A stretch of DNA of 64,000 nucleotides from an uncultured bacterium (GCA_967789005.1 CBRFFM010000015.1:2623-66622), one strand, 5' to 3'. Shown: positions 10 to 58,230, numbered from the stretch's first letter. Notes: generated from the letters alone by a model not told the origin. Made by a program: numbers and translations.

Positions 10-75
10 TTCAAAATTTCAAATTCAAAATTATCTAGCGTCTAGCTTCCAGAATCCACCCTCCAGCATCTAGAA
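10..75. repeat. Two blocks of tandem heptamers upstream of glyQS. Three TT(T)CAAA(A) units lie at 10-30 and six TCYAGnn units at 34-75.
   Basis: Read directly: ttcaaaa|tttcaaa|ttcaaaa, then tctagcg|tctagct|tccagaa|tccaccc|tccagca|tctagaa, all in strict 7-nt register. Confidence 0.8.
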
Positions 76-80
76 TTTTC

Positions 81-88
81 TATTTTTG
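81..88 (+). promoter_or_regulatory. Candidate Bacteroidota -7 promoter box (TAttTTTG) for glyQS
   Basis: The sequence tatttttg matches the TAnnTTTG consensus. It ends 7 nt before the ATG at 96, which implies a leaderless or very short 5' UTR. No clear -33 TTTG is present. Confidence 0.35.
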
Positions 89-95
89 CACCCTT

Positions 96-1655
96 ATGGC
101 AAACGATCAAGAGAACCTGTTGAAAAAAGTGATTTCCCATGCCAAGGAGTATGGGTTTGTTTTTCCTTCGAGTGAAATTTATGACGGCCTCAGCGCGGTG
201 TATGACTACGGGCAGAATGGCGTGGAACTGAAAAACAACATCAAGGAATACTGGTGGAAGTTTATGACGCAGATGCACGACAACATTGTGGGCATCGATA
301 CGGCCATCTTCATGCACCCCACCGTGTGGAAGGCGAGCGGCCACGTGGATGCCTTCAACGACCCGATGATCGACAACAAAGACTCGAAGAAGCGCTACCG
401 TGCCGATGTGCTGGTGGAAGATGCCATCGCCAAAATGGAAGAGAAAGTTGACAAAGAATGCGAGAAGGCTGCGAAACGTTTTGGGGAGTCGTTTGACAAA
501 GCGATGTTTTTGCAAACCAACCCACGTGTGTTGGAATACAAAAAGAAAATAGACGAAGCCAACGAGCGCCTGAAGAACGCCATGAACGCGAGCAACATGG
601 TGGCGATGAAACAACTGATCGTAGACTTAGAAATCAACGACCCGATCAGCGGCACTAAAAACTGGACGGACGTGCGTCAGTTCAATTTGATGTTCAGCAC
701 CGAGATGGGTTCAATTGCTGAAGATGCGAACAAGATTTATTTGCGCCCGGAAACCGCACAGGGAATTTTTGTGAACTTCTTGAACGTGCAGAAGACAGGA
801 CGGATGAAAATTCCTTTCGGGATTGCACAGATTGGTAAAGCGTTTAGAAATGAAATTGTGGCGCGCCAGTTTATTTTCCGCATGCGCGAGTTTGAACAGA
901 TGGAGATGCAATATTTTGTGAAGCCGGGCACAGAGATGGAGGCGTATGAATTCTGGAAAGCGAAGAGGATGAAGTGGCATCAGGCATTAGGTCTTGGGCA
1001 GGACAACTATCGTTTTCATGATCATTTGAATCTTGCGCATTACGCCAACGCTGCGTGCGACATTCAATTTAATTTCCCGATGGGCTTCAAGGAGTTGGAA
1101 GGAATTCACAGCAGAACTGATTTTGATTTGAAAAGCCACGAGAAACATTCGGGCAAGAAGCTTCAGTATTTCGATAGCGAAGACAATCAGAATTATGTTC
1201 CGTTTGTAGTAGAGACTTCGGTAGGATTGGACAGGATGTTCCTTTCTATTTTGTCGAATTCATATAAGGAAGAGAAAGTCTCTAATGCAGAAGGTGAAGA
1301 AGGAGGCGAGCGCGTGGTGCTTGCAATTCCTGCGGCATTGGCTCCATATAAAATTGCAGTGCTGCCTTTGATGAAGAAAGATGGTTTGCCTGAGAAGGCG
1401 ATCGATATTCTTCACGAACTCAAGGCCGACTTCCGCTGCTACTACGAAGACAAAGACACGATTGGCAGAAGATACAGAAGGATGGATGCCATCGGCACTC
1501 CTTATTGTGTAACGATTGATCATCAGACTTTGCAAGACAACACAGTGACTATTCGCGAGCGTGACTCGATGAAGCAGGAGCGGATTGAGATTTCGAAAGT
1601 GGGTGAGAAGATTCAGAAGCTCGTTTCGATGACTGAGTTGTTGAAGAAGGTTTAA
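96..1655 (+). CDS. glyQS: Glycine--tRNA ligase (dimeric class II GlyRS)
   Basis: 519-aa ORF. The N-terminus KEYGFVFPSSEIYDG, the motif FRNEI..RQFIFRMREFEQMEMQYF, and GLDR plus the anticodon-binding C-terminal domain are typical of alpha2-type GlyRS. Confidence 0.95.
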   Translation: MANDQENLLKKVISHAKEYGFVFPSSEIYDGLSAVYDYGQNGVELKNNIKEYWWKFMTQMHDNIVGIDTAIFMHPTVWKASGHVDAFNDPMIDNKDSKKRYRADVLVEDAIAKMEEKVDKECEKAAKRFGESFDKAMFLQTNPRVLEYKKKIDEANERLKNAMNASNMVAMKQLIVDLEINDPISGTKNWTDVRQFNLMFSTEMGSIAEDANKIYLRPETAQGIFVNFLNVQKTGRMKIPFGIAQIGKAFRNEIVARQFIFRMREFEQMEMQYFVKPGTEMEAYEFWKAKRMKWHQALGLGQDNYRFHDHLNLAHYANAACDIQFNFPMGFKELEGIHSRTDFDLKSHEKHSGKKLQYFDSEDNQNYVPFVVETSVGLDRMFLSILSNSYKEEKVSNAEGEEGGERVVLAIPAALAPYKIAVLPLMKKDGLPEKAIDILHELKADFRCYYEDKDTIGRRYRRMDAIGTPYCVTIDHQTLQDNTVTIRERDSMKQERIEISKVGEKIQKLVSMTELLKKV

Positions 1656-1738
1656 ATTCTTTGCATCCTTTGCGTACTTAGCGGTTTAGAATGCATTTAC
1701 CGCGGAGGTTCGGAGAGAGATTTTTGTAACTTTGAATA

Positions 1739-6308: not shown

Positions 6309-8589
6309 TGGGTGCTGCTAAACAGCTATCAGGAATAGCAAATGCATCAACTAATGGAACAGCCTCTAGCCTAATATCCCAACAAAGTTGATTGAGCAAT
6401 TTGCGGATGGCTTTGGTTTTAGCCCCGCTCATGTATCCTTGTTCTAAATACCATCCTTTGTTTTTGTCGATTTGCGATAAAGCAAAGAGCGAACAAAGTT
6501 TTCTCAAGATCGCCTGGCAATTCTTATCAGCTGTGTTTTGAACTTGTTCTATAAATTTCTCCAGCACAATTCGTTCGATATAGGCGAACCCCACTTGTAC
6601 CAAATGATGTTGCGACACATTAAATGCATCAAACGAATCCATGCCTTGATCGATGTGACGTTTCAAACGCTTGGCTGCTGAAGTAAGAATGTCTCGTTCA
6701 CGATATTCAAATGCATCCATGTGAAATTCAGGATCGAGCAAATGATCTTCATCTGTTTTTCTGACAATGATCGGATTGAGCTCGGTAAACGAAGTCTTGG
6801 CTTGATCGGCTACATAGTTAAGAATACCAAACAAGTTCATGTGGGCAAACTCCTGCTTGAATTCAGTCAATCTGCTTTTCGCGACTAGCTGCATCAACAC
6901 CGTGTTGTCGCCTTCAAATGTGGTGAAGATGTCGGTGTCGTTTTTTAATGCATCGATTCTATTTTCCGATAAATAACCTTTTCCACCACAACACTCTCTA
7001 CATTCTTGTAAAGTTGCGGTTGCATTCCATGTGGCAAAAGATTTTAATCCAGCGGCCAGCGCTTCGATCTCCTGCATCTCCTCTTCCTTTCGATTGATAA
7101 AGCGATTGGTCAGGTATTGCAAAGAAAAGTGCAACGCATACGCATTCGCGAGAAGCGGCATCAATCTTCGCTGATGCGTTCTGTAATTTAAGATGGGAAC
7201 CTCAGGCGCTCCTTCCGGTCCGAATTGTTTTCGTTGATCTCCATACTTAATAGCGATCGTCAAACCTGATTTAGACGCACTCAATCCAGCTCGAGGAATT
7301 CCTATTCTTCCTCCTACTAATGTGCCCAGCATGGTGAAGAATCTTCGATTATCGCTAGAGATGGGACTTGAGAATTTCCCTTCTTCAGTAATGGAAGTGT
7401 AGCGGTCGAGTAAATTTTCTGCAGGCACTACTACGTTTCTAAATTCAATCTTTCCGTTATCAACTCCGTTCAATCCCATTTTTCGTCCGCAGTCTTCAAT
7501 GGTGATTCCTGGCAATGTGTTTCCTTTTTTATCACGAAGCGGAACTACAATTGCACAAACACCATAATCTTTCCCTTCTACAATTAATTTAGCAAAGACA
7601 GTTGCCATTTGTCCGTGCAAGGCGGCATTGCCGATGAATTCCTTGCGTGCATTCGGGTGAGGTGTGTGAACTGTAATTGTTTTTGTTGAGTGATCATAAG
7701 TAGCTGTAGTCTCAACTCCCTTCACGTTTGATCCATGATGGATCTCTGTCATCGCAAAACATCCCGGTAAGTCAAGTGTGCCGATGTCTTTCAAATATTT
7801 TTTGTGATGCTTTTCTGTGCCAAGAAAGTAAACGCTCATTCCCCACAAGCCGAACTGAACTCCAAATTTTATCACTAGACTCAAGTCGTGGTAGCTCAGT
7901 GTTTCCATAATGGCGAAATAAGATGCCATATCGTTTTGGCCACCGTATTCTTTAGGATAAGCAATCGAACCAAATCCCTGATCGGCCAGCATGTGCGCCC
8001 ATTGCAAAACTTTTGAGCGATAGATAGAGAGATCTCCCGGGTCGATGTATCTGAATTCAGGATCATCCAATATGGTTTTTACTTTGCGGATGATACCTTC
8101 ATTTTTTCCATCTAAAATTTTCGTCAATGCTTCGACATCGAAAGTTCGCTGAGTGGAAAGTTGTTGTGTAACGGACTCGCGTTTCCCTGATTGGAAATTG
8201 TAAGCCGCTTCGTGACTGATAAATCCTAATGTTGCTTCGATGTTTTCAAGTGCAGATTTTCCTTTCAATAATTCGCTGGAGACTGATCCGCGACTGCGTA
8301 CTAACTGAAACCCGATATCGACCAGACTTTTGCCATCTGTCTGGTCAGCAGCTTTCTTTATTTCTTCTTTCCAGCTCATTAAATCATCTGGCGATGGGGG
8401 AGAGGCCGGATTTATCTGCGAAAACAGAAATGATTTTTCGTCCGCATTCAACCACGGCTGGCTTTCAATCAAACCTTCAAGCGTTGCGATTTCACTGGGA
8501 GTGAGAACAGCATCTGACCAAACCGTATAAAACAATGGAAGGAAGACAAATAAAGACGGATTGGATTTCAATTGAGGTGATTGTAGCAT
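6289..8589 (-). CDS. Acyl-CoA oxidase/dehydrogenase family protein with an N-terminal extension
   Basis: The ACAD/ACOX core (GCFAMTEIHHGSN, FEGDNTVL) follows an uncharacterised N-terminal region of about 150 aa. I prefer the ATG at 8589 over the TTG at 8610. Confidence 0.85.
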   Translation of the reverse strand: MLQSPQLKSNPSLFVFLPLFYTVWSDAVLTPSEIATLEGLIESQPWLNADEKSFLFSQINPASPPSPDDLMSWKEEIKKAADQTDGKSLVDIGFQLVRSRGSVSSELLKGKSALENIEATLGFISHEAAYNFQSGKRESVTQQLSTQRTFDVEALTKILDGKNEGIIRKVKTILDDPEFRYIDPGDLSIYRSKVLQWAHMLADQGFGSIAYPKEYGGQNDMASYFAIMETLSYHDLSLVIKFGVQFGLWGMSVYFLGTEKHHKKYLKDIGTLDLPGCFAMTEIHHGSNVKGVETTATYDHSTKTITVHTPHPNARKEFIGNAALHGQMATVFAKLIVEGKDYGVCAIVVPLRDKKGNTLPGITIEDCGRKMGLNGVDNGKIEFRNVVVPAENLLDRYTSITEEGKFSSPISSDNRRFFTMLGTLVGGRIGIPRAGLSASKSGLTIAIKYGDQRKQFGPEGAPEVPILNYRTHQRRLMPLLANAYALHFSLQYLTNRFINRKEEEMQEIEALAAGLKSFATWNATATLQECRECCGGKGYLSENRIDALKNDTDIFTTFEGDNTVLMQLVAKSRLTEFKQEFAHMNLFGILNYVADQAKTSFTELNPIIVRKTDEDHLLDPEFHMDAFEYRERDILTSAAKRLKRHIDQGMDSFDAFNVSQHHLVQVGFAYIERIVLEKFIEQVQNTADKNCQAILRKLCSLFALSQIDKNKGWYLEQGYMSGAKTKAIRKLLNQLCWDIRLEAVPLVDAFAIPDSCLAAPIIISNK

Positions 8590-8622
8590 AATCGATGCGT
8601 TTATAACCAAAGATAAGATTAA

Positions 8623-8722
8623 TGTGTTGAGGTGTGGACGTGTTGATGTGTTGAAGTATTTCCGGTCAAAACTTAACGACTTCCAAACATGCGTACGTCA
8701 GACACGTCAACACATCAACACT
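8623..8722. repeat. Inverted arrays of octamers nGTGTKGA (4 units) and TCMACACn (3 units) in the divergent promoter region
   Basis: Left array: tgtgttga|ggtgtgga|cgtgttga|tgtgttga (8623-8654). Right array: tcagacac(g)|tcaacaca|tcaacact (8698-8722). A 15-nt perfect inverted repeat pairs 8640-8654 with 8707-8721. Confidence 0.85.
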
Positions 8723-8755
8723 TTTTCTTAGTTTTACCATTTAAATTTTCAGTTC

Positions 8756-11176
8756 ATGTGGGATAAAGTCGCTGCATTCATCATTCGCTTTCGTTTGCCT
8801 TTAATTATTCTTATCGGGCTTGTCACCGTGGTGATGGGTTATTACGCCTCGAAAGTGGAGATGAGTTATGATCTCGCTCGCACTGTGCCGGCCGATGATC
8901 CCGAAATGGTTTTCCTGCAGCAATTCAAAAAACAGTTTGGCGAAGACGCTAACATCATTGGTGTGGGAATTAGAGACAGTTCAATCTATTCACTGAAAAG
9001 CTTCAATCATTTTCGTGAGCTCAATACCATCATCAAAAATATTAAGGGCGTAAACAATTTGCTCAGCATGCCCGAAGTAAAGATCATTCATAAAGACACA
9101 GCAAATAAAAAATTCAAACTTGAGCCACTCTTTCCGAAAGAATTACAAAGCCAGTCTCAACTCGATAGCTTGCTGGGCGTTCTTCGTGATCAAAAATTTT
9201 ATATGGGCCAATTGGTGAATCAAAACAATGGCGCCACCATGATGCTGATTTCTGTTCAAAAGGAAATCATGAACTCCCCAAAAAGGGTTGAACTCACCAA
9301 TCAGTTAGTGGAGGCCGGCAACGCGTTTACCAAATTCACCAACATCAAGATGCATTATGCGGGCTTGCCTTTTATTCGAACTATCATGGCTACGAAAGTG
9401 CGACAAGAGATGCAGTTCTTTCTCTATCTCTCGGCATTGGTCACCGGCTTGATTATGTTTTTCTTTTTCCGCTCGGTGCGCGCGGTGTTATTCTCAATGG
9501 TTATCATTGGCGTAGTGGTAGTTTGGGTAATGGGCACGCTCACCTTGTTTGGTTATAAGATCACTTTGCTTAGCGGATTGATTCCACCAGTAATCGTGAC
9601 GATCGGCATTACCAATTGCATTTACCTACTCAACAAATATCATTTGGAGTTTTTCAAGCTTAAGAGCAAGCCCGATGCAATTGCCGTAGTGGTGAAGAAG
9701 ATGGGACTTGCCATGTTTCTCACTAACCTAACTGTAGCCATCGGTTTCCTCACTCTTCTCTCAACAGATATTTTGTTGCTTCGCGAATTCGGAATTGTTG
9801 CAGGCATTAACATCATGGCGCTGTTTGTGGTGAGCCTGGTCATGATCCCAGCAATTTTCTCTTGGTTGCCCGAGCCCAAGCCAAAACACTTGCGTCACCT
9901 TGATTTTAAAATTCTTGGGTGGTTTTTAAATCTCAATGATATTACGGTGCACCGCTACCGCCCTGCCATTTATATCGCATCAGCTTTACTTGCTGTCTTC
10001 GCAGTGCTTGGAATGATGCGCTTGAAGTCGGTAACATTTATGGTGGATGACGTGCCCGAAAACACCGACATCAGTAAAGACCTTAAATTTTTCGAGTCGA
10101 ATTTCAGTGGCATCATGCCATTGGAGATAGAGGTGAACATGAACAAGCGCAGAGGTGTGCTCAATGTTACTAATCTTAAAAAAGTAGATGAGTTTGAAAC
10201 TTTTATCGATTCGTTGCCGCAAGTATCCAGACCTATTTCGATTATCAGTTTGGTGAAAGCATCCAAGCAGGCGTTTTATGGAAACAATCCCGATAAGTAT
10301 GAGTTACCTACGAAACCTGAGAGTGCTTTCATTTTGCGTTACATGAAAGGTCAGGGCGAAGGTGAAACGACAGGACTACTCAAGTCTTTTGTTGACTCTA
10401 CTTACACCCGCATGCGCATCTCCATGCAGATTGCAGATATCGGATCCATTAAAATGGATTCATTGGTGCATTACGTGATTGAACCACGAATGAATAAAAT
10501 ATTTGAAGGAACAAACATCACCACCAATGTTACGGGTACTACGAAGCTGTTCATCAAAGGGAATAAGTTTTTGATTGCCAATTTGCAGGAGAGCTTGTTG
10601 CTCGCATTTATTCTCATCACGCTTTCCATGGCCTTGTTGTTTGCGAATGTGCGTATGATCATCATTTCTTTAGTGCCGAATTTGTTGGCGCTGATGATCA
10701 CGGCAGGATTGATGGGCTACTTCGGTATTCCACTTAAAGCAAGTACCGCATTGATATTCAGTATCACTTTTGGAATCTCCGTTGACAACTCCATTCGCTT
10801 TTTGGCAAAGTATCGGCAAGAACAATTGACCAATAATTTTTTTGTGCCTCTTTCAGTGAGTGAGAGTATTTTGGAAACAGGCAAAAGCATCATTTATACA
10901 TCAGTGGTGTTGTTTGCAGGGTTCATCATTTTTGCGTTCTCCTCTTTTGGAGGAACGATTGCGTTGGGAGTGCTCACTTCAACGACACTGATCATTTCGA
11001 TGTTTACCAACCTGCTCTTGCTTCCCGCGCTGATCATGACTTTTGACAAACCAAAGAAGGACAAAGAAAAATTGCTCATCGATGAGTTTGATTCTGACTT
11101 CTACAATGAACAAGAAGACGTGGATATTGATTTGAGTAAAATTAAAATTCACGATAGGTCTGGATCAGCGGAATAA
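8756..11176 (+). CDS. MMPL/RND-superfamily exporter
   Basis: 806 aa with two blocks of about 6 TM helices each and large periplasmic loops, the typical MMPL/SSD architecture. Confidence 0.85.
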   Translation: MWDKVAAFIIRFRLPLIILIGLVTVVMGYYASKVEMSYDLARTVPADDPEMVFLQQFKKQFGEDANIIGVGIRDSSIYSLKSFNHFRELNTIIKNIKGVNNLLSMPEVKIIHKDTANKKFKLEPLFPKELQSQSQLDSLLGVLRDQKFYMGQLVNQNNGATMMLISVQKEIMNSPKRVELTNQLVEAGNAFTKFTNIKMHYAGLPFIRTIMATKVRQEMQFFLYLSALVTGLIMFFFFRSVRAVLFSMVIIGVVVVWVMGTLTLFGYKITLLSGLIPPVIVTIGITNCIYLLNKYHLEFFKLKSKPDAIAVVVKKMGLAMFLTNLTVAIGFLTLLSTDILLLREFGIVAGINIMALFVVSLVMIPAIFSWLPEPKPKHLRHLDFKILGWFLNLNDITVHRYRPAIYIASALLAVFAVLGMMRLKSVTFMVDDVPENTDISKDLKFFESNFSGIMPLEIEVNMNKRRGVLNVTNLKKVDEFETFIDSLPQVSRPISIISLVKASKQAFYGNNPDKYELPTKPESAFILRYMKGQGEGETTGLLKSFVDSTYTRMRISMQIADIGSIKMDSLVHYVIEPRMNKIFEGTNITTNVTGTTKLFIKGNKFLIANLQESLLLAFILITLSMALLFANVRMIIISLVPNLLALMITAGLMGYFGIPLKASTALIFSITFGISVDNSIRFLAKYRQEQLTNNFFVPLSVSESILETGKSIIYTSVVLFAGFIIFAFSSFGGTIALGVLTSTTLIISMFTNLLLLPALIMTFDKPKKDKEKLLIDEFDSDFYNEQEDVDIDLSKIKIHDRSGSAE

Positions 11177-11924: not shown

Positions 11925-11947
11925 GAGCGGCAATATTGTTGCCGCTC
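11925..11947 (-). terminator. Hairpin terminator downstream of the sigma-factor operon
   Basis: The stem gagcggcaa/ttgccgctc is 9 bp perfect with a 5-nt loop. On the minus strand it is followed by ttattttt. Confidence 0.6.
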
Positions 11948-14688: not shown

Positions 14689-14723
14689 AATCCCTAAGTC
14701 CCAATGCCCAATCCCTAAGTCCA
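14689..14723. repeat. Five tandem heptamers AAkyCCn, which give a 14-nt perfect direct repeat at 21-nt spacing
   Basis: Units: aatccct|aagtccc|aatgccc|aatccct|aagtcca. The 14-mer CAATCCCTAAGTCC occurs at 14688-14701 and 14709-14722. Confidence 0.85.
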
Positions 14724-17764: not shown

Positions 17765-18658
17765 CTACGCTATCTGCTTCGCGAGGAGCGCAAGTCCCTC
17801 CGTAAAACTGTGTGGCTTAAAACCCAATTCTCTCTTTGCCTTCTCAATAATAAATCCAGTCTTTGGTGGGCGCTTCGCGGGCTGAGTGAACTTGCTTGAA
17901 TCGGTTTGATTGATCAAAGACTTATCTAGCTTGAAATAGTCGGCTGTAGCAATGGCAATATCATAAGGAGTCATCATGGCTTCGCCCGAAATGTTAAAAA
18001 TGCCTTTCGCTTTTTTCTTCGCAGCAAGAAAACATCCCATCGCCAAATCTTCAGCAAGTGTGGGTGTGCGAAATTGATCGTTCACTACATTGATGCTCTT
18101 TCTTTCTTCTAAACTCTTCTTTACCCAAAGCACAATGTTACTGCGACTCATATCTTTGGTTACTCCAAAGACAAGCACTGTTCTGAGAATCGCCCAGTCG
18201 ATCGTGCTTTTTTGAATGACAACTTCAGCAGCTAATTTACTTTCGCCATAATAGCTAAGCGGATTCGGTTTTTCATTTTCATCTAGTGGACCGTGTGTCC
18301 CATCAAAAATAAAATCGGTCGACACATGAATAAGGTGAACATTATGTTTTTTGCAGACCTCAACCAAATAAGAAACCGCGTCTACGTTGGCTGTCCAGCA
18401 TTTCTCTCTTTCGGTCTCACATTGGTCTACTTGTGTCATCGCGGCCGTGTTGATCACCACATCGGGTTTCGTTTTGGCAATCACTTCTTCCACTTCAAGA
18501 ACATTGGTAATGTCAAGTGAATGAAATTCCCCTCGAGACAAATCAGGAATCAGTTTTGATTTAGCGGTGGCGATCAAATAGCAATCGGCTTGAGTTGAGA
18601 TCAGTTCAACTAATTTTTGCCCAAGCAATCCGTTACAACCGGTGACAAGTATTCTCAT
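17765..18658 (-). CDS. SDR-family NAD(P)-dependent sugar reductase/epimerase (dTDP-4-dehydrorhamnose reductase-like)
   Basis: It has a Rossmann motif MRILVTGCNGLLGQ, a YGESK catalytic motif, and the length expected for an RfbD-like enzyme. Confidence 0.75.
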   Translation of the reverse strand: MRILVTGCNGLLGQKLVELISTQADCYLIATAKSKLIPDLSRGEFHSLDITNVLEVEEVIAKTKPDVVINTAAMTQVDQCETEREKCWTANVDAVSYLVEVCKKHNVHLIHVSTDFIFDGTHGPLDENEKPNPLSYYGESKLAAEVVIQKSTIDWAILRTVLVFGVTKDMSRSNIVLWVKKSLEERKSINVVNDQFRTPTLAEDLAMGCFLAAKKKAKGIFNISGEAMMTPYDIAIATADYFKLDKSLINQTDSSKFTQPAKRPPKTGFIIEKAKRELGFKPHSFTEGLALLAKQIA

Positions 18659-20695: not shown

Positions 20696-20711
20696 TCTAT
20701 TAAAAGTATTG

Positions 20712-20785
20712 GCTATGAGTTTCGAGCTGCCAGCTATGAGTTAATGATCCTACAAACTCGAGGCTCGAAGCTAGCAACTCAAAGC
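20712..20785. repeat. Heptamer-built imperfect palindrome with 31-nt arms and a 12-nt loop
   Basis: Left arm: gctatga|gtttcga|gctgcca|gctatga|gtt. Right arm: aac|tcgaggc|tcgaagc|tagcaac|tcaaagc. 23 of 31 positions are complementary. GCTATGAGTT is repeated at a 21-nt spacing. Confidence 0.85.
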
Positions 20786-21951
20786 TATTTATTCGATTCA
20801 CCAAAAACACTTTTCAAAATCTCTCTTTCAATTTCATCGAGCTTGATATTTCTTCGGGCCATTACACGTTCTGCGGTTTCCATTGCTGCTTCATATTTAT
20901 AAGTAACAAATCCAGCAGCGCCTCCCCACTGAAAGGAAGGAATAAAATTACGTGGATAGCCTGCTCCAAAAATATTTGAACTCACACCCACCACGGTGCC
21001 GGTGTTAAACATGGTGTTGATTCCGCATTTGCTGTGGTCTCCCATGATCAATCCGCAGAAAGTACTGCCGGTGTCAACAAATCCTTTTTTCTCATAGCTC
21101 CACAACTTCACGTTGTCGTAATTGTTTTTGAGATTGGAGGTATTGGTGTCTGCACCTAGATTACACCATTCGCCTAAAACCGAGTTTCCCAAGAATCCAT
21201 CGTGACCTTTGTTGCTGTAACCGAATAGAATTGAGTTACTCACCTCTCCACCAATTTTACAATGCGGTCCAACCGTTGTGTCACCTTTCATCTTTGCGCC
21301 CATATTTACAATAGATAATTCACCCAGTGAAAATGGTCCGCGAATAACGGCTCCTTCTTGCACTTCTGAATTTTTCCCCAGATAAATTGGTCCGTTTTCA
21401 GCGTTGAGTACTGCCGAACGAAGCGCCACCCCTTCTTCTAAGAAGATTTCAGAAGAATTGTAAGTGTGTACATGCGGATCGCTAATGACTGCTGACTTTC
21501 TATTGGCAGTAATCAGTTTGAAATCAGAACGGATTTGATTTCCATTGTTCTGAAAGATTTTCCAGAGTTTATCGATCAGCACAATTTCTCCAGGGTATTC
21601 AGTTGCCTCTCCTGAGATCACCTCAGGCAATTCATCATCATCTGTGCGAACCGCAATGATCATCGAGTTCTTATGAATGACGTCACCGGGATTCAATTTT
21701 TTAATGGCCTCAACCAAAGTTGCGTCCGGGCAAGCTGCTCCGTTGATCCAGAGATTATCAGATGAAGTTTTCTTGGCGAATTTTTTGGAAAGATAATCTT
21801 GAGATGAATAGGATGGCTTCGTCTGAAAATAACGTTCCCATTTTTCAGCGATAGTTAAAATCCCTATTCGAATCTCGGCCACAGGCCTTGTGAATGTAAG
21901 CGGCAAGAGACTGGCGCGAATAGAGGGGTCGTCAAAGAGGATAAGATTCAT
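20785..21951 (-). CDS. GlmU-like sugar nucleotidyltransferase/acyltransferase (left-handed beta-helix) protein
   Basis: 388 aa. The C-terminal half carries hexapeptide repeats (GKNSEVQEGAVIRG, GAKMKGDTTVG, IGGEVSNS), and the N-terminal part is nucleotidyltransferase-like. Confidence 0.7.
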   Translation of the reverse strand: MNLILFDDPSIRASLLPLTFTRPVAEIRIGILTIAEKWERYFQTKPSYSSQDYLSKKFAKKTSSDNLWINGAACPDATLVEAIKKLNPGDVIHKNSMIIAVRTDDDELPEVISGEATEYPGEIVLIDKLWKIFQNNGNQIRSDFKLITANRKSAVISDPHVHTYNSSEIFLEEGVALRSAVLNAENGPIYLGKNSEVQEGAVIRGPFSLGELSIVNMGAKMKGDTTVGPHCKIGGEVSNSILFGYSNKGHDGFLGNSVLGEWCNLGADTNTSNLKNNYDNVKLWSYEKKGFVDTGSTFCGLIMGDHSKCGINTMFNTGTVVGVSSNIFGAGYPRNFIPSFQWGGAAGFVTYKYEAAMETAERVMARRNIKLDEIEREILKSVFGESNK

Positions 21952-21980: not shown

Positions 21981-22011
21981 AAAAAAAAAGAATCCCGCAC
22001 CTGCGAGATTC
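21981..22011 (-). terminator. Rho-independent terminator of rpmE2
   Basis: On the minus strand: gaatctcgcaggtgcgggattc followed by T9. Confidence 0.8.
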
Positions 22012-22038
22012 TCGTTCTTAAAAACGCTAATAGCAATA

Positions 22039-28836: not shown

Positions 28837-29001
28837 ATGGGAAGACTCATTTCCTTAGCGGTCTTAGTTCTTGATGTCATTGTGATTCTAGACATCCTCA
28901 AAAGCAACAAAGACATGGAGAAGAAAATCTTGTGGATAATAGCTGTTGTTTTCCTTCCGTTGATTGGCCCTGTTTTGTACTACCTTATCGGGAAGAAGTA
29001 A
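28837..29001 (+). CDS. PLDc_N-domain small membrane protein (54 aa), below the ORF-track length cut-off
   Basis: Hand translation gives MGRLISLAVLVLDVIVILDILKSNKDMEKKILWIIAVVFLPLIGPVLYYLIGKK. The W..(V)VF.P.iG...Y motif is characteristic of the PLD N-terminal domain family. Confidence 0.7.
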   Translation: MGRLISLAVLVLDVIVILDILKSNKDMEKKILWIIAVVFLPLIGPVLYYLIGKK

Positions 29002-30874: not shown

Positions 30875-30950
30875 GTGCTTTCTGTTGAAAGCATAAAAGT
30901 AATTGATTCCTGCCGAAGTGAGTTGAAGGAAATACGACCTAATTTAAATT

Positions 30951-31011
30951 CTTCGCGCCTTAGCGTCTTTGCGGTTAGCATTTTTTACCGCAAAGGCGCA
31001 AGGACGCAAGG
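30951..31011. repeat. Octamer-built imperfect palindrome, CTTnGCGn x3 facing nCGCAAGG x3
   Basis: cttcgcgc|cttagcgt|ctttgcgg, then a loop, then ccgcaaag|gcgcaagg|acgcaagg. The inner unit pair is perfectly complementary and about 18 of 24 positions pair overall. It shares the 13-mer gcgtctttgcggt with 58218-58230. Confidence 0.85.
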
Positions 31012-31020
31012 GGATGCAGC

Positions 31021-36908: not shown

Positions 36909-36910
36909 TT

Positions 36911-36949
36911 GATCGCGGATTGATTATGGATTAATGGATAACACGGATT
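36911..36949. repeat. Left inverted-repeat arm (GGATT units) flanking the GxxExxY pseudogene
   Basis: The terminus gatcgcggatt at 36911-36921 is perfectly complementary to aatccgcgatc at 37383-37393. The inner end acacggatt pairs with aatccgcgt at 8 of 9 positions. Confidence 0.85.
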
Positions 36950-36950
36950 T

Positions 36951-37344
36951 TTATAGCTCCTTAACTGTGTGATTTTGCATTAACACCAATCTTTTGAAAG
37001 TTAAACTCTTAGATCCGAAATTGATGAGAAGCCCTACTTCTAATTTGTAGGCTTTTAGGTAATTGAGTGCTTGCCGTCTTCAAGTTGAATAATCGCTTTG
37101 GAGTTCTACCAAGATTTTTTCTTCCACAACAAAGTCGGCTCTTCGTTTACCAATGGGATCTGGCAAATCCTTATAAAAAATCTCATGCTCTATTTCTCTT
37201 TTAAAACTAAGATTGTATTTACCTAATTCATAAGCTAAAGCTCGTTGATAAATGACTTCTGGAAATCCGTTGCCTAGAAATTTATGAACCTCAAAAAGAT
37301 GCTCCGATGATCTTTTCTGTAATGTCTTTATACTTTAATTCCAT
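36951..37344 (-). pseudogene. GxxExxY-family (PD-(D/E)XK-like) gene disrupted by frameshifts
   Basis: Minus-strand translation gives MELKYKDITEKIIGASF, then TGA at a T5 run (37293-37297). Shifting frame restores EVHKFLGNGFPEVIYQRALAYELGKYNLSFKREIEHEIFYKDLPDPIGKRRADFVVEEKILVEL. A second disruption follows (..QSDYST*RR), then QALNYLKAYKLEVGLLINFGSKSLTFKRL. The track shows no ORF of 60 aa or more here. Confidence 0.75.
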
Positions 37345-37356
37345 TTTCAAATTTTG

Positions 37357-37393
37357 AATCCGCGTAAATCCATCAATCCTCTAATCCGCGATC
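37357..37393. repeat. Right inverted-repeat arm (AATCC units) flanking the GxxExxY pseudogene
   Basis: In aatccgcgtaaatccatcaatcctctaatccgcgatc, AATCC recurs at spacings of 10, 8 and 8 nt. The arm overlaps the stop codon of the OmpA-PD40 gene. Confidence 0.85.
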
Positions 37394-39338
37394 ATTCTTT
37401 TATTAACTCAAACTCCACTCTTCGGTTGAATTTTTTTGACTCTTCCGAGTTTTCCTGAACGATTGGTTTGGAGCTACCATAGCCAATGGCGGTAATTCGG
37501 GATTCATCAATTTTGAATTGATCGATGAGGTACGTTCGAATAGCATCGGCACGAGCCTGAGAGAGTTTTAGATTCAGTTCTTCATGGCCGTCTGAATCGG
37601 TATGACCGGCAATTCTCAATTTCTCTTCTGGATGATCTAACAAGAAGTTTCCAACTTTGGCCAAGTCGTTATGCATGGCAGGCAAAATATCTGATTTTCC
37701 ATTTTCAAATTCCAGAGAAATAAACGCAATCTTGCTTTCAATTGGCTCCGCGATGTGTGTTGCCTTTTTGTTGCCATCCATGTAAAAGACTTCTTCAATT
37801 CTGAAAAAGTCATCGCCCTGAATGATGATGAGATAATTTCGTTTGTTAATGAGATTGAAATCATACGTTCCATCTTCTCTTAAATATTTCGGAGCAACTT
37901 CCACACCATGATCCAAATCCAAGACTGAAACAATACCACTCATAGGTTTGCCCTTTCTATCTTGCACCGAACCACTGAGTTCCACTACAGCTTCAGGATG
38001 GGCTTCCATCGGAAGTAAAAAAGAATAGATATCAAGATTTTTAATATCGTTTTCTATTGATCGCGCATAATACAATTCATGACTTTTAGAATCGATAGTG
38101 AAATAATATTCGCTGCCAGCGCCATTCACTAAAGGCCCGATGTTCTTTGGCTCACCCCAACTATTTTTTTGCCGATACGATTTATAAATATCGAAATCCC
38201 CAAAATTGAGCGGATGGCCATCGGAAGAAAAATACAGCACATTGAACTTGTGGTGAAAGAATGGGCTTACCTCGCTTCTTACAGTATTGATGATTGGCCC
38301 CGCATTTTGCGCTCGACCCCAATTCCCTCTTTTGTCTTTTACGGAAAAATAAATGTCAGACAAGCCGAAGCCCCCAAAGCGATTGCTTGCGAAGTAAATG
38401 GTATCTCCACTATGACTGATTGCAGGCTGCGATTCCCAACCCGAAGTATTTACGTTCACTCCCAGGTTTTTGACATCGCCCCAGGTGCTGTCTTTGCTTA
38501 ACGTAGCAACATACAAATCGCAACTGCCAAAACCTTTGGGTGCCTCGCACCTGGAAAAAAATAAGTATTTTCCATCAAGGCTCAGACACGCTGACCCCTC
38601 ATTATAATCGGTATTGATGGTTTTAAAATCTTCGGCTTTGGTCCACGCTCCATCCACTTTATAACTATAAAAAATATCTTCATTGTAAGCACGTTGCTGA
38701 TGGGTGTTGCGCTTGGATGTAAAAAGAAAAACATAGTCTACATTGCCGATGGCAGGTCCGTAATCTTCCTTTGGTGAATTGATATTATCTCCCATCGACT
38801 CAAGCACCGTATGCGGTGGTTTAAGCGTGTCAACTTCTTTTCGATAATTCACTAACTGATAGTAGTGCTCAAGTGGAACGTAGTATTTTTTCTTGTCTGT
38901 TTCGATTGAATCGTATCTCTTATAAATGTTGCTAATATCAACTCCTTGTTTGTGATGTTTAAGCGCCAGTTTGTACAATAATATTGCCTCTCCTTTAGGA
39001 CCAAATTTTTCTGACAGTTCCGCTAACTTCCAGATCATTGGCACATTATCAGAAAAATTTTCGATGCCGAAATTCTTCACGTAATCTTTCAGGGCCTCAT
39101 ACATTTCCTCAGGTTTGTCGCTCAGCTCTTTTAGATGTTTGAGCTTGGTGTGGTCAACATAATACTTGAGCTTATTTACATTGGGGAAATTAAATATGTC
39201 AGACTGGCTGTAGTGAGTGATAGAGTCATTGACAAAGACTGTTTTTACAATCTTTCCTTTTTGATCTTGTGCTAAACTGTGATCAAAACAAAGCGCACAC
39301 CAACACAGGGCAGCTAAAAATGCTTTGAATGGGGTCAT
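37392..39338 (-). CDS. OmpA-family protein with TolB-like (PD40) beta-propeller repeats
   Basis: Signal peptide, an N-terminal TPR-like region, repeated S.P..S.DG..lYF.S.R....G..DIY motifs, and a C-terminal OmpA domain (IAGHTDSDG, NRRVEF). Confidence 0.85.
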   Translation of the reverse strand: MTPFKAFLAALCWCALCFDHSLAQDQKGKIVKTVFVNDSITHYSQSDIFNFPNVNKLKYYVDHTKLKHLKELSDKPEEMYEALKDYVKNFGIENFSDNVPMIWKLAELSEKFGPKGEAILLYKLALKHHKQGVDISNIYKRYDSIETDKKKYYVPLEHYYQLVNYRKEVDTLKPPHTVLESMGDNINSPKEDYGPAIGNVDYVFLFTSKRNTHQQRAYNEDIFYSYKVDGAWTKAEDFKTINTDYNEGSACLSLDGKYLFFSRCEAPKGFGSCDLYVATLSKDSTWGDVKNLGVNVNTSGWESQPAISHSGDTIYFASNRFGGFGLSDIYFSVKDKRGNWGRAQNAGPIINTVRSEVSPFFHHKFNVLYFSSDGHPLNFGDFDIYKSYRQKNSWGEPKNIGPLVNGAGSEYYFTIDSKSHELYYARSIENDIKNLDIYSFLLPMEAHPEAVVELSGSVQDRKGKPMSGIVSVLDLDHGVEVAPKYLREDGTYDFNLINKRNYLIIIQGDDFFRIEEVFYMDGNKKATHIAEPIESKIAFISLEFENGKSDILPAMHNDLAKVGNFLLDHPEEKLRIAGHTDSDGHEELNLKLSQARADAIRTYLIDQFKIDESRITAIGYGSSKPIVQENSEESKKFNRRVEFELIKE

Positions 39339-41983: not shown

Positions 41984-41988
41984 AAAAA

Positions 41989-42051
41989 CGTTAATCGTTA
42001 TCCGTTAATAGCGGATAGCGATAACGAGCACGAATAACTATTAACGAATTC
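41989..42051. repeat. Heptamer-built element CGTTAAT/CGTTATC facing CGATAA/CGAATAA in the lon-hslU spacer
   Basis: cgttaat|cgttatc|cgttaat|ag|cggatag|cgataa|cgagca|cgaataa|ctattaa|cgaattc. It shares the 11-mer acgaataacta with 57305-57315. Confidence 0.8.
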
Positions 42052-42054
42052 CTC

Positions 42055-47185: not shown

Positions 47186-47204
47186 GAACTATTCCTCCTA
47201 GATA

Positions 47205-47245
47205 AATGAAGGGCTGTCTCAAAAAGACGGCCCTTCATTTTTTTT
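47205..47245 (+). terminator. Rho-independent terminator of the TM2 gene, shared with the convergent gene
   Basis: The stem aatgaagggc/gcccttcatt is 10 bp perfect and is followed by a T-run. The stop codon of the minus-strand gene lies within the descending arm. Confidence 0.75.
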
Positions 47246-50310: not shown

Positions 50311-50317
50311 GAGTTCA

Positions 50318-50427
50318 ATTTGAAAATTTGAAAATTAATCAATTTGAAAATTTAGAACCGATTTGAAGATTTGAAACGGATTATCACTAATTCAATTTTC
50401 AAATCTTCAAATCAATTCATTTTCAAA

Positions 50428-50428
<1 letters not shown>
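50318..50428. repeat. Octamer-built palindrome filling the atpD-atpC spacer: 7 ATTTGAAA-type units facing 4 TTTCAAAT-type units
   Basis: Left arm units run in two registers, 50318-50357 and 50361-50376. The right arm spans 50397-50428. A 17-bp perfect inverted repeat gatttgaagatttgaaa / tttcaaatcttcaaatc pairs 50360-50376 with 50397-50413 around a 20-nt loop. Confidence 0.9.
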
Positions 50429-52002
<1,574 letters not shown>

Positions 52003-53669: not shown

Positions 53670-53674
53670 ATCTC

Positions 53675-55830: not shown

Positions 55831-55840
55831 CAGACAGAAA

Positions 55841-55872
55841 TTTTCAAATTAGTTAATCTTCAAATTTTCAAA
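55841..55872. repeat. Four tandem octamers of TTTTCAAA type in the dxr-rseP spacer
   Basis: ttttcaaa|ttagttaa|tcttcaaa|ttttcaaa. It shares the 11-mer aatcttcaaat with the atpD-atpC element. Confidence 0.8.
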
Positions 55873-55880
55873 TCAGTAGT

Positions 55881-57248
55881 ATGGAAGGATTGATCATGAC
55901 GGCCCAGCTTTTGTTGAGCCTTTCGATTTTGATAGTAGTGCATGAGTGGGGACATTTTTTTGCGGCCCGTACATTCAATATTAAAGTAGAGAAGTTCTAT
56001 CTCTTCTTCGATTTCCTTTTCCCGATGGCAAACGTGATGAACTTCTCTTTGCTGAAATGGAAAAAAGGAGATACCGAATACGGAATAGGTTGGTTTCCTC
56101 TTGGCGGCTATGTAAAAATTGCCGGCATGGTCGATGAGAGCATGGACAAAGAGCAAATGAAACAACCTGCCCAGCCGTGGGAATTCCGTGCTAAGCCCGC
56201 TTGGCAAAGACTTATTGTTATGCTCGGGGGAATTATCGTGAATGTAATTGTAGGTGTTCTGATTTTTATCGGCATGACTTATTTCATTGGCGATAGTTAT
56301 ATCCCAATGAAATATGTGAACGCACACGGTGGAGTTCAGTCACTAGAATTGGCGCAGAAATTAGGTTTTAAGACTGGAGATCAAATTCTAAAGATCAACG
56401 GACAAGAGATTGATAAATTTGATGATGTGGCAAAGCCTGAAGTTTTGCTTACTCCTCATTCATTCTATACTGTAAAAAGAGATGCTGAAGAAATTAACAT
56501 TTCTATTCCTGAAGACTTCATTGAAAACTTTAGCAACAAAGATGCCGCCTCTAATTTTTTACTTCCTCGTTTCCCTGCGAAGGTTGGCTCTGTAAAACCA
56601 AAATCAATTGCAGACCAGGTTGGCTTAAAGGCAGGAGATACTTTTACAGAGATAGGCGGACAGCCTGCCATGTATTTTGATCAGGTTTCGGAATACGTGA
56701 AGAGTTTTAAAGGAGATTCAATCAGCTTTAAGGTTTTGCGTGGAACGCAGGAGCTCTCTTTCAAAAAATATTTCAAAGGGGAAAAGGCAATCGGGTTTCA
56801 TCCTGTAGGTGAGTTGGTACCAAAAGAAGAACTGATTAATGTGAATTACTCTTTGGGCGAATCGATCTTGCTGGGCCCTGGAAGAGCATTTGGTGTGTTG
56901 ACTGTTCAGCTTAAGGCTTTCAAAAAGATTTTCGCAGGCGAGTTATCTTTCAAAAAATCACTTTCAGGCCCGATCGGCATGGCCCAAATTTATGGGGGCA
57001 CATGGGATTGGTCACGCTTCTGGAGAGTGACCGGAATCCTTTCAATGGTGTTGGCATTTATGAACCTATTGCCAATTCCTGCACTTGATGGTGGTTACGT
57101 GGTGTTCTTGCTTTATGAAATGATCACTGGTCGTGAGCCATCAGAGAAGTTCTTCGAGAACTCGATTAAAGTAGGTATGGCCATTCTCCTCCTGCTCATG
57201 GTATTCGTTTTCTACAACGACATTGCGAAGTTGATCACTGGGAATTGA
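55881..57248 (+). CDS. rseP: RIP zinc metalloprotease RseP (site-2 protease, M50)
   Basis: HEWGHFFAA, PDZ regions, and NLLPIPALDGG. Confidence 0.9.
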   Translation: MEGLIMTAQLLLSLSILIVVHEWGHFFAARTFNIKVEKFYLFFDFLFPMANVMNFSLLKWKKGDTEYGIGWFPLGGYVKIAGMVDESMDKEQMKQPAQPWEFRAKPAWQRLIVMLGGIIVNVIVGVLIFIGMTYFIGDSYIPMKYVNAHGGVQSLELAQKLGFKTGDQILKINGQEIDKFDDVAKPEVLLTPHSFYTVKRDAEEINISIPEDFIENFSNKDAASNFLLPRFPAKVGSVKPKSIADQVGLKAGDTFTEIGGQPAMYFDQVSEYVKSFKGDSISFKVLRGTQELSFKKYFKGEKAIGFHPVGELVPKEELINVNYSLGESILLGPGRAFGVLTVQLKAFKKIFAGELSFKKSLSGPIGMAQIYGGTWDWSRFWRVTGILSMVLAFMNLLPIPALDGGYVVFLLYEMITGREPSEKFFENSIKVGMAILLLLMVFVFYNDIAKLITGN

Positions 57249-57249
57249 G

Positions 57250-57324
57250 AATCGTTGTTGGTTTGACTGTTATTCGTTGTTAGGCTGTTCTCGAACAACC
57301 GGCAACGAATAACTAACAACGATT
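57250..57324. terminator. Long heptamer-built hairpin between the convergent rseP and TPR genes (likely bidirectional terminator)
   Basis: aatcgttgtt (57250-57259) pairs perfectly with aacaacgatt (57315-57324). ttattcgttg (57270-57279) pairs perfectly with caacgaataa (57303-57312). The right arm reads gaacaac|cggcaac|gaataac|taacaac. Confidence 0.7.
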
Positions 57325-58180
57325 ATTTAAACACATCGAAACAAAACTCTTTCAGGTATTCTGCTGCATCATCTTCGCCAGCATCGAGGGCTTTGCGTAA
57401 GCAACGGCAGCCTTCATCTAGTTTCTCTTGCTGAACCAAGGCAATTCCTTTATAAAATATCGCAGAAATATTTTCTGGGTCTATTCTTAAAGCAAGATTC
57501 AAATATTTGACAGCCAGGTCATATTTTTCATCTTCTACACAGAAAGATCCTGCGTAGACGTACGAAGCGGAATAGTTCACGTCAAGTACGATGGCTTTGT
57601 TCAAACATATAAAAGCGCTATCTGTTTTTCCGAGGGCTCGATAAACGGTGCCAAGAGCAGTTTCTATTTCGGCATCGTCATTGAGATTTTTTACAAAAAG
57701 AAAATCTTTCTTGGCAACCTCATTTTCGCCTTTGGCTGCGAGCAAAGTACCTCTCCAAAAAATGAGTTGAGGATTTCCGTTCCCTAATTCTATCGCTTTC
57801 TGCAAATCGATTAATTGACTAGCCTCATCATTTTTTTGTCGATTGATGAGCGCACGCAAAAGTCGGGGTTGTGGGCTTTCAGGAAATTGAGTGATAAATA
57901 AACTTACATCTGCCAGTGCGAGGTCAAAATCGCCTACACTGTAATAACTTACTGCACGCTTGTATAGCGATTTGTAATTGCTCTTGTCTTTCAGTTTTGA
58001 TTCGTCAATGATTTTCGTGTAGAGCTTCGAGGCTTCCTCAAAATTCTCGTGTTTCATCAACGTGTCTGCATCAGCTTCCCATTGAGACCAGCGAGTCTGT
58101 TCGTCTTGCGCAAAGGCAAGACTTGAACATATTAGAATGAGCAAAGTTGTAAAAGAGAGATTCTTACAACGAAAGTGCAA
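57323..58180 (-). CDS. Secreted TPR-repeat protein
   Basis: An in-frame TTG at 58180 gives MHFRCKNLSFTTLLILICSSLAFAQ, a good signal peptide. The ATG at 58264 would add 28 residues read through a palindromic repeat and would overlap typA. Multiple TPR motifs are present. Confidence 0.65.
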   Translation of the reverse strand: MHFRCKNLSFTTLLILICSSLAFAQDEQTRWSQWEADADTLMKHENFEEASKLYTKIIDESKLKDKSNYKSLYKRAVSYYSVGDFDLALADVSLFITQFPESPQPRLLRALINRQKNDEASQLIDLQKAIELGNGNPQLIFWRGTLLAAKGENEVAKKDFLFVKNLNDDAEIETALGTVYRALGKTDSAFICLNKAIVLDVNYSASYVYAGSFCVEDEKYDLAVKYLNLALRIDPENISAIFYKGIALVQQEKLDEGCRCLRKALDAGEDDAAEYLKEFCFDVFK

Positions 58181-58230
58181 GGGCGCAAAGTCCTTGCTAT
58201 TAGTCCTTTGCGCCCTTGCGTCTTTGCGGT
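58175..58230. repeat. Octamer-built palindrome of the CGCAAGG/CTTTGCG family downstream of typA
   Basis: gtgcaagg|gcgcaaag, then a loop, then ctttgcgc|ccttgcgt|ctttgcgg. A 14-bp perfect stem pairs 58177-58190 with 58206-58219. Confidence 0.85.

Follow-up and report, generated by a model that had tools for sequence, protein, structure and literature searches.

Intergenic arrays of degenerate 7- to 9-nucleotide units in an uncultured Cytophagales bacterium: possible palindromic cassettes and their gene-less derivatives

Within a 64-kb stretch of the genome of an uncultured Cytophagales bacterium (CBRFFM010000015.1:2623-66622; 41% G+C; hereafter the window), which contains the housekeeping genes lon, hslU, atpD-atpC, dxr, rseP and typA, many intergenic spacers are made of short arrays of degenerate units, frequently arranged as two inverted arms. 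The affected spacers are 12 of about 37, or about a third, and most elements occupy the entire spacer, reaching the adjacent stop or start codons. On balance, we lean towards the view that these spacers hold palindromic cassettes resembling the intervening sequences (IVS) of 23S rRNA, along with derivatives lacking an open reading frame (ORF), and that all form one class growing by slippage. Statements about the source genome refer to these 64 kb, in which genes were mapped by a simple longest-ORF rule; loci used for comparison are designated L001, L002 and so on.

An initial annotation of the window had listed at least eleven spacers with a strict short-period structure. All 13 segments of that list hold the units ascribed to them, but the list is incomplete, since a twelfth spacer (1656-1738) also scores. 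Periodicity was measured in 36 window spacers (4.7 kb; p values for 35) by soft self-alignment at a fixed lag (+1/-1, score of at least 10) against 200 dinucleotide shuffles per spacer. The excess of arrays in the window is confined to periods 7, 8 and 9, with three arrays of period 7 (0.14 expected), five of period 8 (0.12 expected) and two of period 9 (0.10 expected); one array of period 14 was counted (0.06 expected), and the window spacers gave none at periods 3-6, 10-13 or 15. Seven of the 35 spacers have p<=0.05 and five have p<=0.01, those at 50311-50427 (p 0.055) and 55831-55880 (p 0.08) being borderline. The soft score, which was checked by shuffles and by an Escherichia coli control, replaced a strict tandem scoring (mismatch -2). 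Under the strict penalty p falls below 0.05 in only four spacers, of which three have period 8 and the fourth, not a listed element, has period 6; the units are therefore degenerate and the word strict overstates their regularity, whereas the periodicity itself stands.

The lineage-wide set comprised 114 kb of intergenic DNA from the window and 80 Cytophagales genomes gathered by a Dxr scan, including Ohtaekwangia-like metagenome-assembled genomes (MAGs), Fulvivirga, Pontibacter, Arcicella and Algoriphagus. In this set, 60 arrays of period 7 were found against 4.6 expected, 27 of period 8 against 3.8 and 36 of period 14 against 2.8, with little or no excess at periods 3-6 and 10-13. Examples are CTTCCAG x14 (L047), GTTTTGA/GTTTTCA x15 (L056) and long inverted pairs in Arcicella aurantiaca. 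Counts in coding DNA peak at multiples of three, without a peak at 7 or 8, and the E. coli K-12 control (150 kb, of which 14 kb intergenic) gave no array of period 7 and one of period 8, likewise without a 7/8 peak. The spacers of the window and of its relatives thus exceed dinucleotide-shuffled controls at periods 7 and 8, as anticipated, and those of the window also at period 9.

The initial annotation had also proposed that the class is defined by architecture and not by sequence, and this is borne out. Considering all loci, 116 different units occur in 143 arrays, which rules out a limited unit vocabulary common to all genomes, and 37 of the 143 arrays have, within 250 nt, an inverted partner that outscores those of all 30 shuffles, where about 4.6 would be expected. 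Unit families nevertheless recur within a genome: 10-mers are shared by 9 of 121 within-genome pairs of arrays more than 600 nt apart, versus 151 of 9994 between-locus pairs, some of which take in near-duplicate contigs. The 13-mer GCGTCTTTGCGGT is identical in the window elements at 30951 and 58175 and the 11-mer ACGAATAACTA in those at 41989 and 57249, both as annotated, and CCTTTGCG is common to the elements at 1656-1738, 30951 and 58175. The long hairpins that had been predicted were found for seven of the 13 listed segments, which are self-contained hairpins with RNA fold z-scores, used here as the measure of hairpin strength, of -2.98 to -7.15 (Table 1). Four other segments are single arrays with neither partner nor fold, and the last two are inverted arms lying about 400 nt apart. 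In the hairpin at 8615-8730 the inverted partner scores 18, compared with a shuffle maximum of 12.

The two distant arms, which had been listed as separate elements (36911-36949 and 37357-37393), surround a gene remnant and form with it a single cassette (36909-37394). The remnant (36954-37344, minus strand) is that of a GxxExxY gene placed between the inverted AATCC/GGATT arms. Because this pseudogene was missed, the initial annotation made no link to gene cassettes or to the 23S rRNA IVS; the ORF census missed it as well. No other gene remnant flanked by repeats was seen in the window. The array at 14689-14723, made of 7-mers and previously grouped with these arms as one AATCC/GGATT family, is distinct from them. 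Reconstruction yields a protein that exceeds the cut-offs of two profiles, with 125 bits for TIGR04256 (cut-off 35) and 118 bits for PF13366 (cut-off 22); an intact homologue of 133 amino acids is 92% identical to it. The reading frame is interrupted by three frame changes, which may be an assembly error, a single assembly covering 36.9-37.4 kb. The 11-mer GATCGCGGATT has exactly two copies in the window, one at each end of the cassette and in inverted orientation.

The same anatomy surrounds GxxExxY genes elsewhere. A non-redundant sample of 69 genes, drawn from a Nodularia genome and from metagenome and MAG contigs, has GATT upstream at 2.8 per 100 nt and AATC downstream at 3.2 per 100 nt, compared with a background of 0.6, and at least three GATT/AATC copies are found on one side of 60 of the 69 genes. 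The spacing between copies peaks at 9 nt (126 cases) and 8 nt (50 cases). The arms, in the metagenome contigs and in the Nodularia genome, follow the pattern N4-5GATT / AATCN4-5, mostly with period 9. An inverted repeat, TGTCTGAATCA...TGATTCAGACA, terminates many of the cassettes, and exact inverted pairs of the 9-mer TCTGAATCA flank the gene in 12 loci. The cassettes often lie exactly between neighbouring genes, with ends overlapping stop or start codons, and the window cassette does likewise. Its site, between a 258-amino-acid gene and an OmpA-like gene, is also filled in L085, L090 and L141, with conserved ends TGATCGCGGATT and variable inner units that retain the GATT core only. In L143, L142 and L114, full cassettes are adjoined by hairpins of 100-150 nt that lack an ORF but have the ends and units of the cassette, so ORF-less derivatives of the GxxExxY cassette type demonstrably exist.

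A second cargo is the four-helix-bundle protein of family TIGR02436. In L009, a gene for such a protein (18103-18489; 84 bits against TIGR02436) is located in the lon-hslU spacer between inverted heptamer arms (CCAGTTA... / ACTGGCA ACCGGAA ACAGGCA ACTGGTA). At this site the window has an ORF-less period-7 hairpin that has a GTTA core in common with L009, and other relatives have 23-47 nt. Arms of 7-mers, unrelated in sequence, surround four-helix-bundle genes in L009 (two genes), L046, L080 and L170-L179, and the arm units include TAACYGG / CCRGTTA. When flanks were scored blind, those of GxxExxY genes showed period 9 in 52 cases, period 8 in 8 and period 7 never, and those of four-helix-bundle genes showed period 7 in 14 of 15, a sample representing only about five independent cassettes. 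The period of the arms is linked to the cargo gene. Moreover, contigs encoding an identical four-helix-bundle protein differ in one arm by exactly 14 nt, that is two heptamers, and are otherwise the same over 160 nt. The genes of L170-L179 (Lacibacter cauensis and metagenome contigs) belong to one clade placed between argE and argH of the arginine operon; their spacers measure only 13-150 nt, mostly below 60. A scan of viral contigs for relatives of the four-helix-bundle protein found none, and PADLOC and PDB sequence searches with both cargo proteins gave no match.

Comparison of orthologous spacers shows that the sites are empty, or hold other unit families, in relatives. None of the three closest relatives (L005, L006 and L008) has the hairpin that separates rseP from the tetratricopeptide repeat (TPR) gene or the one that separates the TPR gene from typA, and in L005 the rseP/TPR spacer is only 9-14 nt long. 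The dxr-rseP spacer measures 0-5 nt in about half of the relatives and contains different 8-mer families in other genomes, such as AATTAACGAATCAACG units in L005 and L023. A motif TTTTCAAAWTAG near the rseP start is common to the window, L006, L008, L010 and L018, with differing unit numbers. The atpD-atpC hairpin is kept: the window and L008, with only 84% identity between their Dxr proteins, have a block of 25 identical nt in it, and a comparable hairpin of GATT/AATC-core units is found in L005. Among independent assemblies of the same species, the elements from 50311 onward are matched base for base by L001, by L003 up to 57410, and by L002 and L004 over 55831-55880 only. Of the 13 differences between the window and L001, ten, eight of them also in L003, cluster at 56198-56375, a 180-nt stretch of rseP; this cluster looks like a recombination tract between strains.

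Table 1. Repeat elements of the window. Positions are counted from its first nucleotide; p, shuffle test of the spacer; z, RNA fold z-score, with the folded segment in brackets; TRF, Tandem Repeats Finder; MFE, minimum free energy.
Position	Strand	Element	Evidence
8-32		Single period-7 array, AATTCAA x3.6, at window edge; upstream partner outside view	TRF; lag score; spacer 1-95 p 0.005; unfolded
34-86		Single period-7 array, TCYAGNN x7; ends about 10 nt before start codon at 96	Lag score; unfolded
1656-1738		CTTTGCG-like array, period 9, weak hairpin; absent from initial list	Lag score 11; p 0.01
8615-8730		Period-8 hairpin in divergent spacer; arms 8619-8660 (TTGANGTG x5) and 8695-8722 (ACACNTCA x3), loop about 40 nt	TRF; p 0.005; z -3.90 (8615-8730)
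14689-14723		Single period-7 array, AATCCCT AAGTCCC AATGCCC AATCCCT AAGTCC, no partner	p 0.045; z -1.6; unfolded
20712-20785		Period-7 hairpin (GCTATGA / AACTCNN), same-strand genes either side	p 0.025; z -2.98 (20705-20790)
30951-31011		Period-8 hairpin, CTTNGCGN / NCGCAAGG, same-strand genes either side	TRF; p 0.005; z -5.31 (30945-31015)
36909-36949		GxxExxY cassette arm, downstream in gene sense: (AATCN4)n, end AATCCGCGATCAA	Begins 2 nt past TGA of 36132-36908 gene
36954-37344	-	GxxExxY (PD-(D/E)XK, PDDEXK_3) gene remnant, three frame changes	Three-frame translation; profiles; tblastn match
37357-37394		GxxExxY cassette arm, upstream in gene sense: GATCGCGGATT AGAGGATT GATGGATT TACGCGGATT	End overlaps stop of 37392-39338 gene
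41989-42051		Period-7 hairpin and array (CGTTAAT CGTTATC CGTTAAT / AGCGGAT AGCGATA ACGAGCA CGAATAA ...); whole lon-hslU spacer	p 0.005; z -4.41 (41984-42054)
50311-50428		Period-8 hairpin (N4[GA]ATT / AATYN4), stem about 31 bp plus 2-3 unpaired extra units; whole atpD-atpC spacer	TRF; z -5.64 (50311-50430)
55841-55873	+	Single period-8 array, AATYN4 x4, unstructured; ends 7 nt before rseP start codon	TRF; p 0.08; MFE 0
about 57249-57325		Period-7 hairpin (AATCGTT GTTGGTT ... AACAACC GGCAACG AATAACT AACAACG ATT); exactly spans gap between rseP stop (TGA) and convergent TPR gene stop (TTA)	z -5.65 (57246-57326)
58175-58230		Period-8 hairpin, CCTTTGCG / CGCAAAGG, between typA and TPR gene	TRF; z -7.15 (58170-58235)

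The following scheme can be proposed. Each element would consist of two inverted arms, in each of which a degenerate unit of 7 nt or 8-9 nt is repeated a few times. Full-length forms would hold a small gene in the loop, either a TIGR02436 four-helix-bundle gene ('23S rRNA IVS protein') between 7-nt arms or a GxxExxY gene between 8-9-nt N4-5GATT / AATCN4-5 arms, often with terminal TGTCTGAATCA. The window would then contain one decayed GxxExxY cassette, seven ORF-less hairpins, four solo arms and the weakly folding array at 1656-1738. Elements would insert into, or expand within, very short spacers at gene ends; their length would shift by whole units via replication slippage, and they would be replaced or lost between genera. 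Upon transcription from the flanking genes, the arms would pair into a long imperfect stem, and this stem, by analogy with the 23S rRNA IVS, may be a substrate of RNase III, so that the insert would be tolerated within operons. We infer that the elements possess some mechanism of mobility, that a cargo protein may take part in it or in arm binding, and that the ORF-less hairpins of the window, whose unit sequences differ, are members of this class too.

In Coxiella, the 23S rRNA IVS forms a 28-bp stem whose loop contains a four-helix-bundle ORF; two or three tandem heptamers, varying in number between strains, precede this ORF, and the first of them is the site at which RNase III cuts; ORF-less and decaying forms exist, and horizontal acquisition has been proposed (PMC4990558). 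A terminal inverted-repeat stem and a small PF05635 / TIGR02436 ORF in the loop, known from the IVS of Leptospira, Coxiella and Brucella, are found here in L009. Unlike those IVS, the present elements lie between protein-coding genes and not in an rRNA helix, and a gathering-threshold Rfam scan together with a tRNA scan of the window gave no match, including none to rRNA. Moreover, multi-unit arrays form both arms here, and there is a second cargo, GxxExxY, with 8-9-nt arms. Finally, RNase III cleavage is established in Coxiella, whereas it is predicted by analogy for the elements described here.

Several observations weigh against one class of cassettes and derivatives. The ORF-less hairpins of the window are assigned to it from architecture, period and position only, because the units and ends of most of them match no cassette: the units of most (TTGANGTG, CTTTGCG, GCTATGA) fit neither cassette type, and the terminal repeats TCTGAATCA / GATCGCGGATT were not found in the window beyond the GxxExxY cassette. 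The 64-kb window contains no intact four-helix-bundle or GxxExxY gene, and ORF-bearing cassettes with strictly 8-nt units were not found beyond the window's own clade. In orthologous GxxExxY cassettes the inner arm units pair only partially, a pattern that an RNA stem explains no better, and perhaps less well, than repeated binding sites do. The elements of the window show no strain polymorphism when compared with the 99.9%-identical assemblies L001-L004, no strain-level pair of empty and filled sites was seen, and no target-site duplication was noticed in the flanks read. The small number of independent four-helix-bundle cassettes behind the association with period 7 also counts here.

The comparison with the short tandemly repeated repetitive (STRR) sequences of cyanobacteria, drawn in the initial annotation, is apt. 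These heptamer repeats, reportedly described by Mazel in 1990 and, as long simple-sequence repeats, by Mrazek in 2007, are also intergenic head-to-tail 7-nt arrays, above chance and scattered over the genome. However, STRR are a few fixed heptamers in high copy, whereas the units here are diverse, only 7% of within-genome pairs of arrays sharing a 10-mer, and the source genome is represented by 64 kb; periods 8 and 9 are enriched as well, and the arrays often form inverted pairs. STRR are not known to be associated with a cargo gene, and no such association was found in the literature searched. Cyanobacterial heptamer repeats have been known since 1990 and the 23S IVS for a similar time, and neither has an accepted origin or function.

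A counterpart in Bacteroidota, of which the initial annotation knew none, has been published: TAACTGA and 'other heptamers' occur as direct repeats in Beggiatoaceae, 15 Cyanobacteria and five Bacteroidetes, mostly immediately before start codons, and the orthologous spacers of close relatives lack them (MacGregor 2015, PMC4679880). The same paper reports essentially no inverted arrangement, no mechanism and no linked gene (PMC4679880). Both groups of repeats include Bacteroidetes heptamer arrays that are mostly intergenic and mixed with related heptamers, and their spread across phyla suggests transfer. The arms of four-helix-bundle genes contain TAACYGG / CCRGTTA, the exact doublet TAACTGATAACTGA is found before rseP in L068, and the window arrays at 34-86 and 55841-55873 end just before start codons; over all arrays, however, 37% of ends are within 10 nt of a start and 29% within 10 nt of a stop. 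The window itself has no match to the TAACTGA doublet with fewer than three mismatches.

A bolder extension of the cassette scheme can be put forward, tentatively. Unit length would be set by the cargo protein; the arms would be predicted protein-binding arrays driving copying, homing or RNA processing; ORF-less hairpins and solo arms would be sites served in trans; and STRR, TAACTGA repeats and the 23S IVS would make up one cross-phylum cassette family. A ring oligomer of the four-helix-bundle protein would then read one 7-nt unit per subunit, and the nuclease-like GxxExxY protein would read 8-9-nt units with a GATT core. The Xanthomonas homologue of the four-helix-bundle protein is a pentameric toroid.

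Could the arrays be a pure by-product of slippage, that is, of a lineage-specific bias duplicating 7-8-nt non-coding stretches, with hairpins and cassette arms being incidental? We regard this as rather unlikely. The unit diversity given above, the many arrays lacking an inverted partner, the whole-unit indel between strains and the higher-order periodicity of some arrays (a 21-nt super-period in L058, for example) speak for it. Heptamers were, furthermore, described as the commonest long repeat class, polymerase slippage being proposed as their origin (Mrazek 2007, cited in PMC4679880). Slippage would, however, leave unexplained the inverted partners found at eight times the shuffle expectation, as well as the strand-specific GATT/AATC arms and conserved terminal repeats of GxxExxY genes. 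It also fails to account for the way in which the cargo gene strictly divides period 7 from period 9, and for the identical 25-nt atpD-atpC block in genomes whose Dxr proteins have diverged so far.

It is improbable that the units primarily form arrays bound by a host nucleic-acid-binding protein on mRNA, exerting translational or stability control, with the solo arms before start codons as the working form. A start codon is at most 10 nt away from 37% of array ends, the dxr-rseP array is wholly unstructured, and TTTTCAAAWTAG recurs near the rseP start in the five loci named above. In Bacteroidota, initiation is not led by the Shine-Dalgarno sequence, which also counts for such a role, and TAACTGA arrays are placed likewise (MacGregor 2015, PMC4679880). 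Against this stands the fact that the array is dispensable, dxr and rseP abutting without a spacer in about half of the relatives; the units are also too varied for a single binding protein, and arrays are equally common after stop codons (29% of ends lie within 10 nt of one) and between convergent genes.

We are similarly doubtful that the elements are ordinary RNA hairpins selected as terminators or 3'-end stabilisers, unit duplication being an easy way to lengthen a stem. It had been stated that the elements occur in all contexts; they do occur inside operons, between convergent genes and in divergent spacers, but unevenly, their density being 1.21 arrays per kb where the flanking genes converge, 0.84 where they are in tandem and 0.32 where they diverge. 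This gradient, the strong fold z-scores and the retention of the atpD-atpC hairpin in three relatives are what a terminating or stabilising role would give. Nevertheless, terminator scans of the window called none of the elements terminator-like, that is, with a short GC-rich stem and a T run, whereas canonical GC-rich stems with T runs lie elsewhere in it (11925-11947, 21988-22013 and 47204-47240). Several elements are within operons or directly before start codons, and four arrays do not fold. These two explanations and slippage are partly compatible with the cassette scheme.

Very improbable, lastly, is an origin as repetitive extragenic palindromic (REP) repeats or bacterial interspersed mosaic elements (BIME) mobilised by a REP-associated tyrosine transposase (RAYT), or as miniature inverted-repeat transposable elements (MITEs) of a conventional insertion sequence: the elements are extragenic, palindromic and recurrent within a genome, and a RAYT-like gene with REP-like flanks occurs in one unrelated metagenome locus (L157), but no RAYT or transposase gene was seen in the window, there is neither a conserved GTAG/CGTC-type tag nor near-identical copies, the arms are variable-length tandem arrays instead of fixed palindromes of 20-40 bp, and target-site duplications were not noticed in the flanks read. 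The L157 locus (8510-9076; an IS200-like / RAYT-type tyrosine transposase gene with short GC-rich palindromes either side) is a classical REP-RAYT contrast case. Some likeness to REP/BIME elements, including REP doublets forming hairpins (REPINs), does exist, namely palindromes enriched downstream of genes and a gene-bearing form flanked by the repeats of the gene-less form; however, the cargo here is not a Y1 transposase, the arrays have variable units, and no high-copy identical families were found in the available sequence. Terminal inverted repeats followed by subterminal repeated motifs are characteristic of Ac/Ds and En/Spm. The GxxExxY cassette resembles such transposons and MITEs, having conserved terminal inverted repeats of 9-12 nt, GATT arrays inside its ends and ORF-less derivatives (L114, L142, L143). 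Unlike them, it has no recognised transposase, and no target-site duplication was noticed in the flanks read; the other hairpins of the window lack shared cassette ends.

Earlier publications had thus described heptamer repeats from a few Bacteroidetes as well as the heptamers of the Coxiella IVS. In the literature searched, no paper was found that links heptamer repeats, IVS and cassettes or that describes the GxxExxY arms, nor was a description of flanking arrays found in work on GxxExxY, PDDEXK_3 or the four-helix-bundle/IVS protein; a published mention of GxxExxY near a reverse transcriptase proved to be a Cas4-like mis-call and is irrelevant. PDDEXK_3 is listed as of unknown function, with multiple transfers (PMC3424549). 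Should the link hold, STRR and the 23S IVS would become testable as one element family with two cargo proteins, the read-out being arm period versus cargo. A sizeable share of Cytophagales intergenic DNA would be accounted for, it would become clear why four-helix-bundle and GxxExxY genes form large paralogue families shuffled by horizontal transfer, and a PD-(D/E)XK protein without assigned function would become a candidate mobility or processing enzyme.

Further observations concern GxxExxY cassettes. Homologues of the protein number more than 7500 at E<=1e-20, and the window copy is 80-85% identical to those of cyanobacteria (Nodularia, Pseudanabaena), Balneolaceae, Anaerophaga and Chitinophagales; such cross-phylum identity is far above that of housekeeping proteins and therefore points to recent transfer between phyla. 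No GxxExxY gene was found in the 80 dxr-centred Cytophagales loci. In L143, a full cassette (705-1199) and an ORF-less mini-hairpin (1476-1575) with the same ends seem to break an hsdM-like coding region, and a TGA within the terminal repeat terminates the upstream reading frame. In L105 (2400-2990; also in L106 and L108), a partial second copy of a histidine-kinase C-terminus, whose end lies just upstream of the cassette (GHGGELKVETKEGEG...), follows downstream of it; this partial copy possibly stems from duplication or replacement of the 3' end of the target gene. In Nodularia spumigena (L088, 9700-10000), a unit of about 73 nt with AATCCGTG-type octamers is present in about four tandem copies just upstream of the GxxExxY gene (10001-10384), and a complete ORF-less hairpin of the same units lies downstream of the gene.

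Two other insertions are ordinary genes and not cassettes. One is a small ribosome-factor-like gene in L008; the other, in the dxr-rseP spacer of Arcicella aurantiaca (L058, 11149-11907), is a toxin-antitoxin pair in which the antitoxin-like ORF is small and the PemK/MazF-like toxin gene is frameshifted. A period-8 array lies between this pair and rseP, directly before the latter. Arrays can also mislead gene callers and break assemblies. In the window, the longest-ORF call for the TPR gene (57323-58264, with a GTG at 58264) is over-extended, reading through the hairpin at 58175-58230. This hairpin is intergenic, because the alignments of relatives begin at residues 38-51 of the ORF, and the true start of the gene is probably near 58110-58150.

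The CTTTGCG units were also considered as -7 promoter boxes of Bacteroidota (TAnnTTTG), an assignment that fits only the divergent typA/aminotransferase spacer (60081-60319) and not the hairpins. That spacer holds two facing TAnnTTTG matches, TATCTTTG on the minus strand and TACCTTTG on the plus strand, which are kept in L005 and L008; judging from their sequence, the CTTTGCG-like motifs at this place are promoters and not repeat units. Lastly, the heptamer AATGCCA is present in three perfect copies at 29608-29628, within the coding region 28985-30307 (minus strand).

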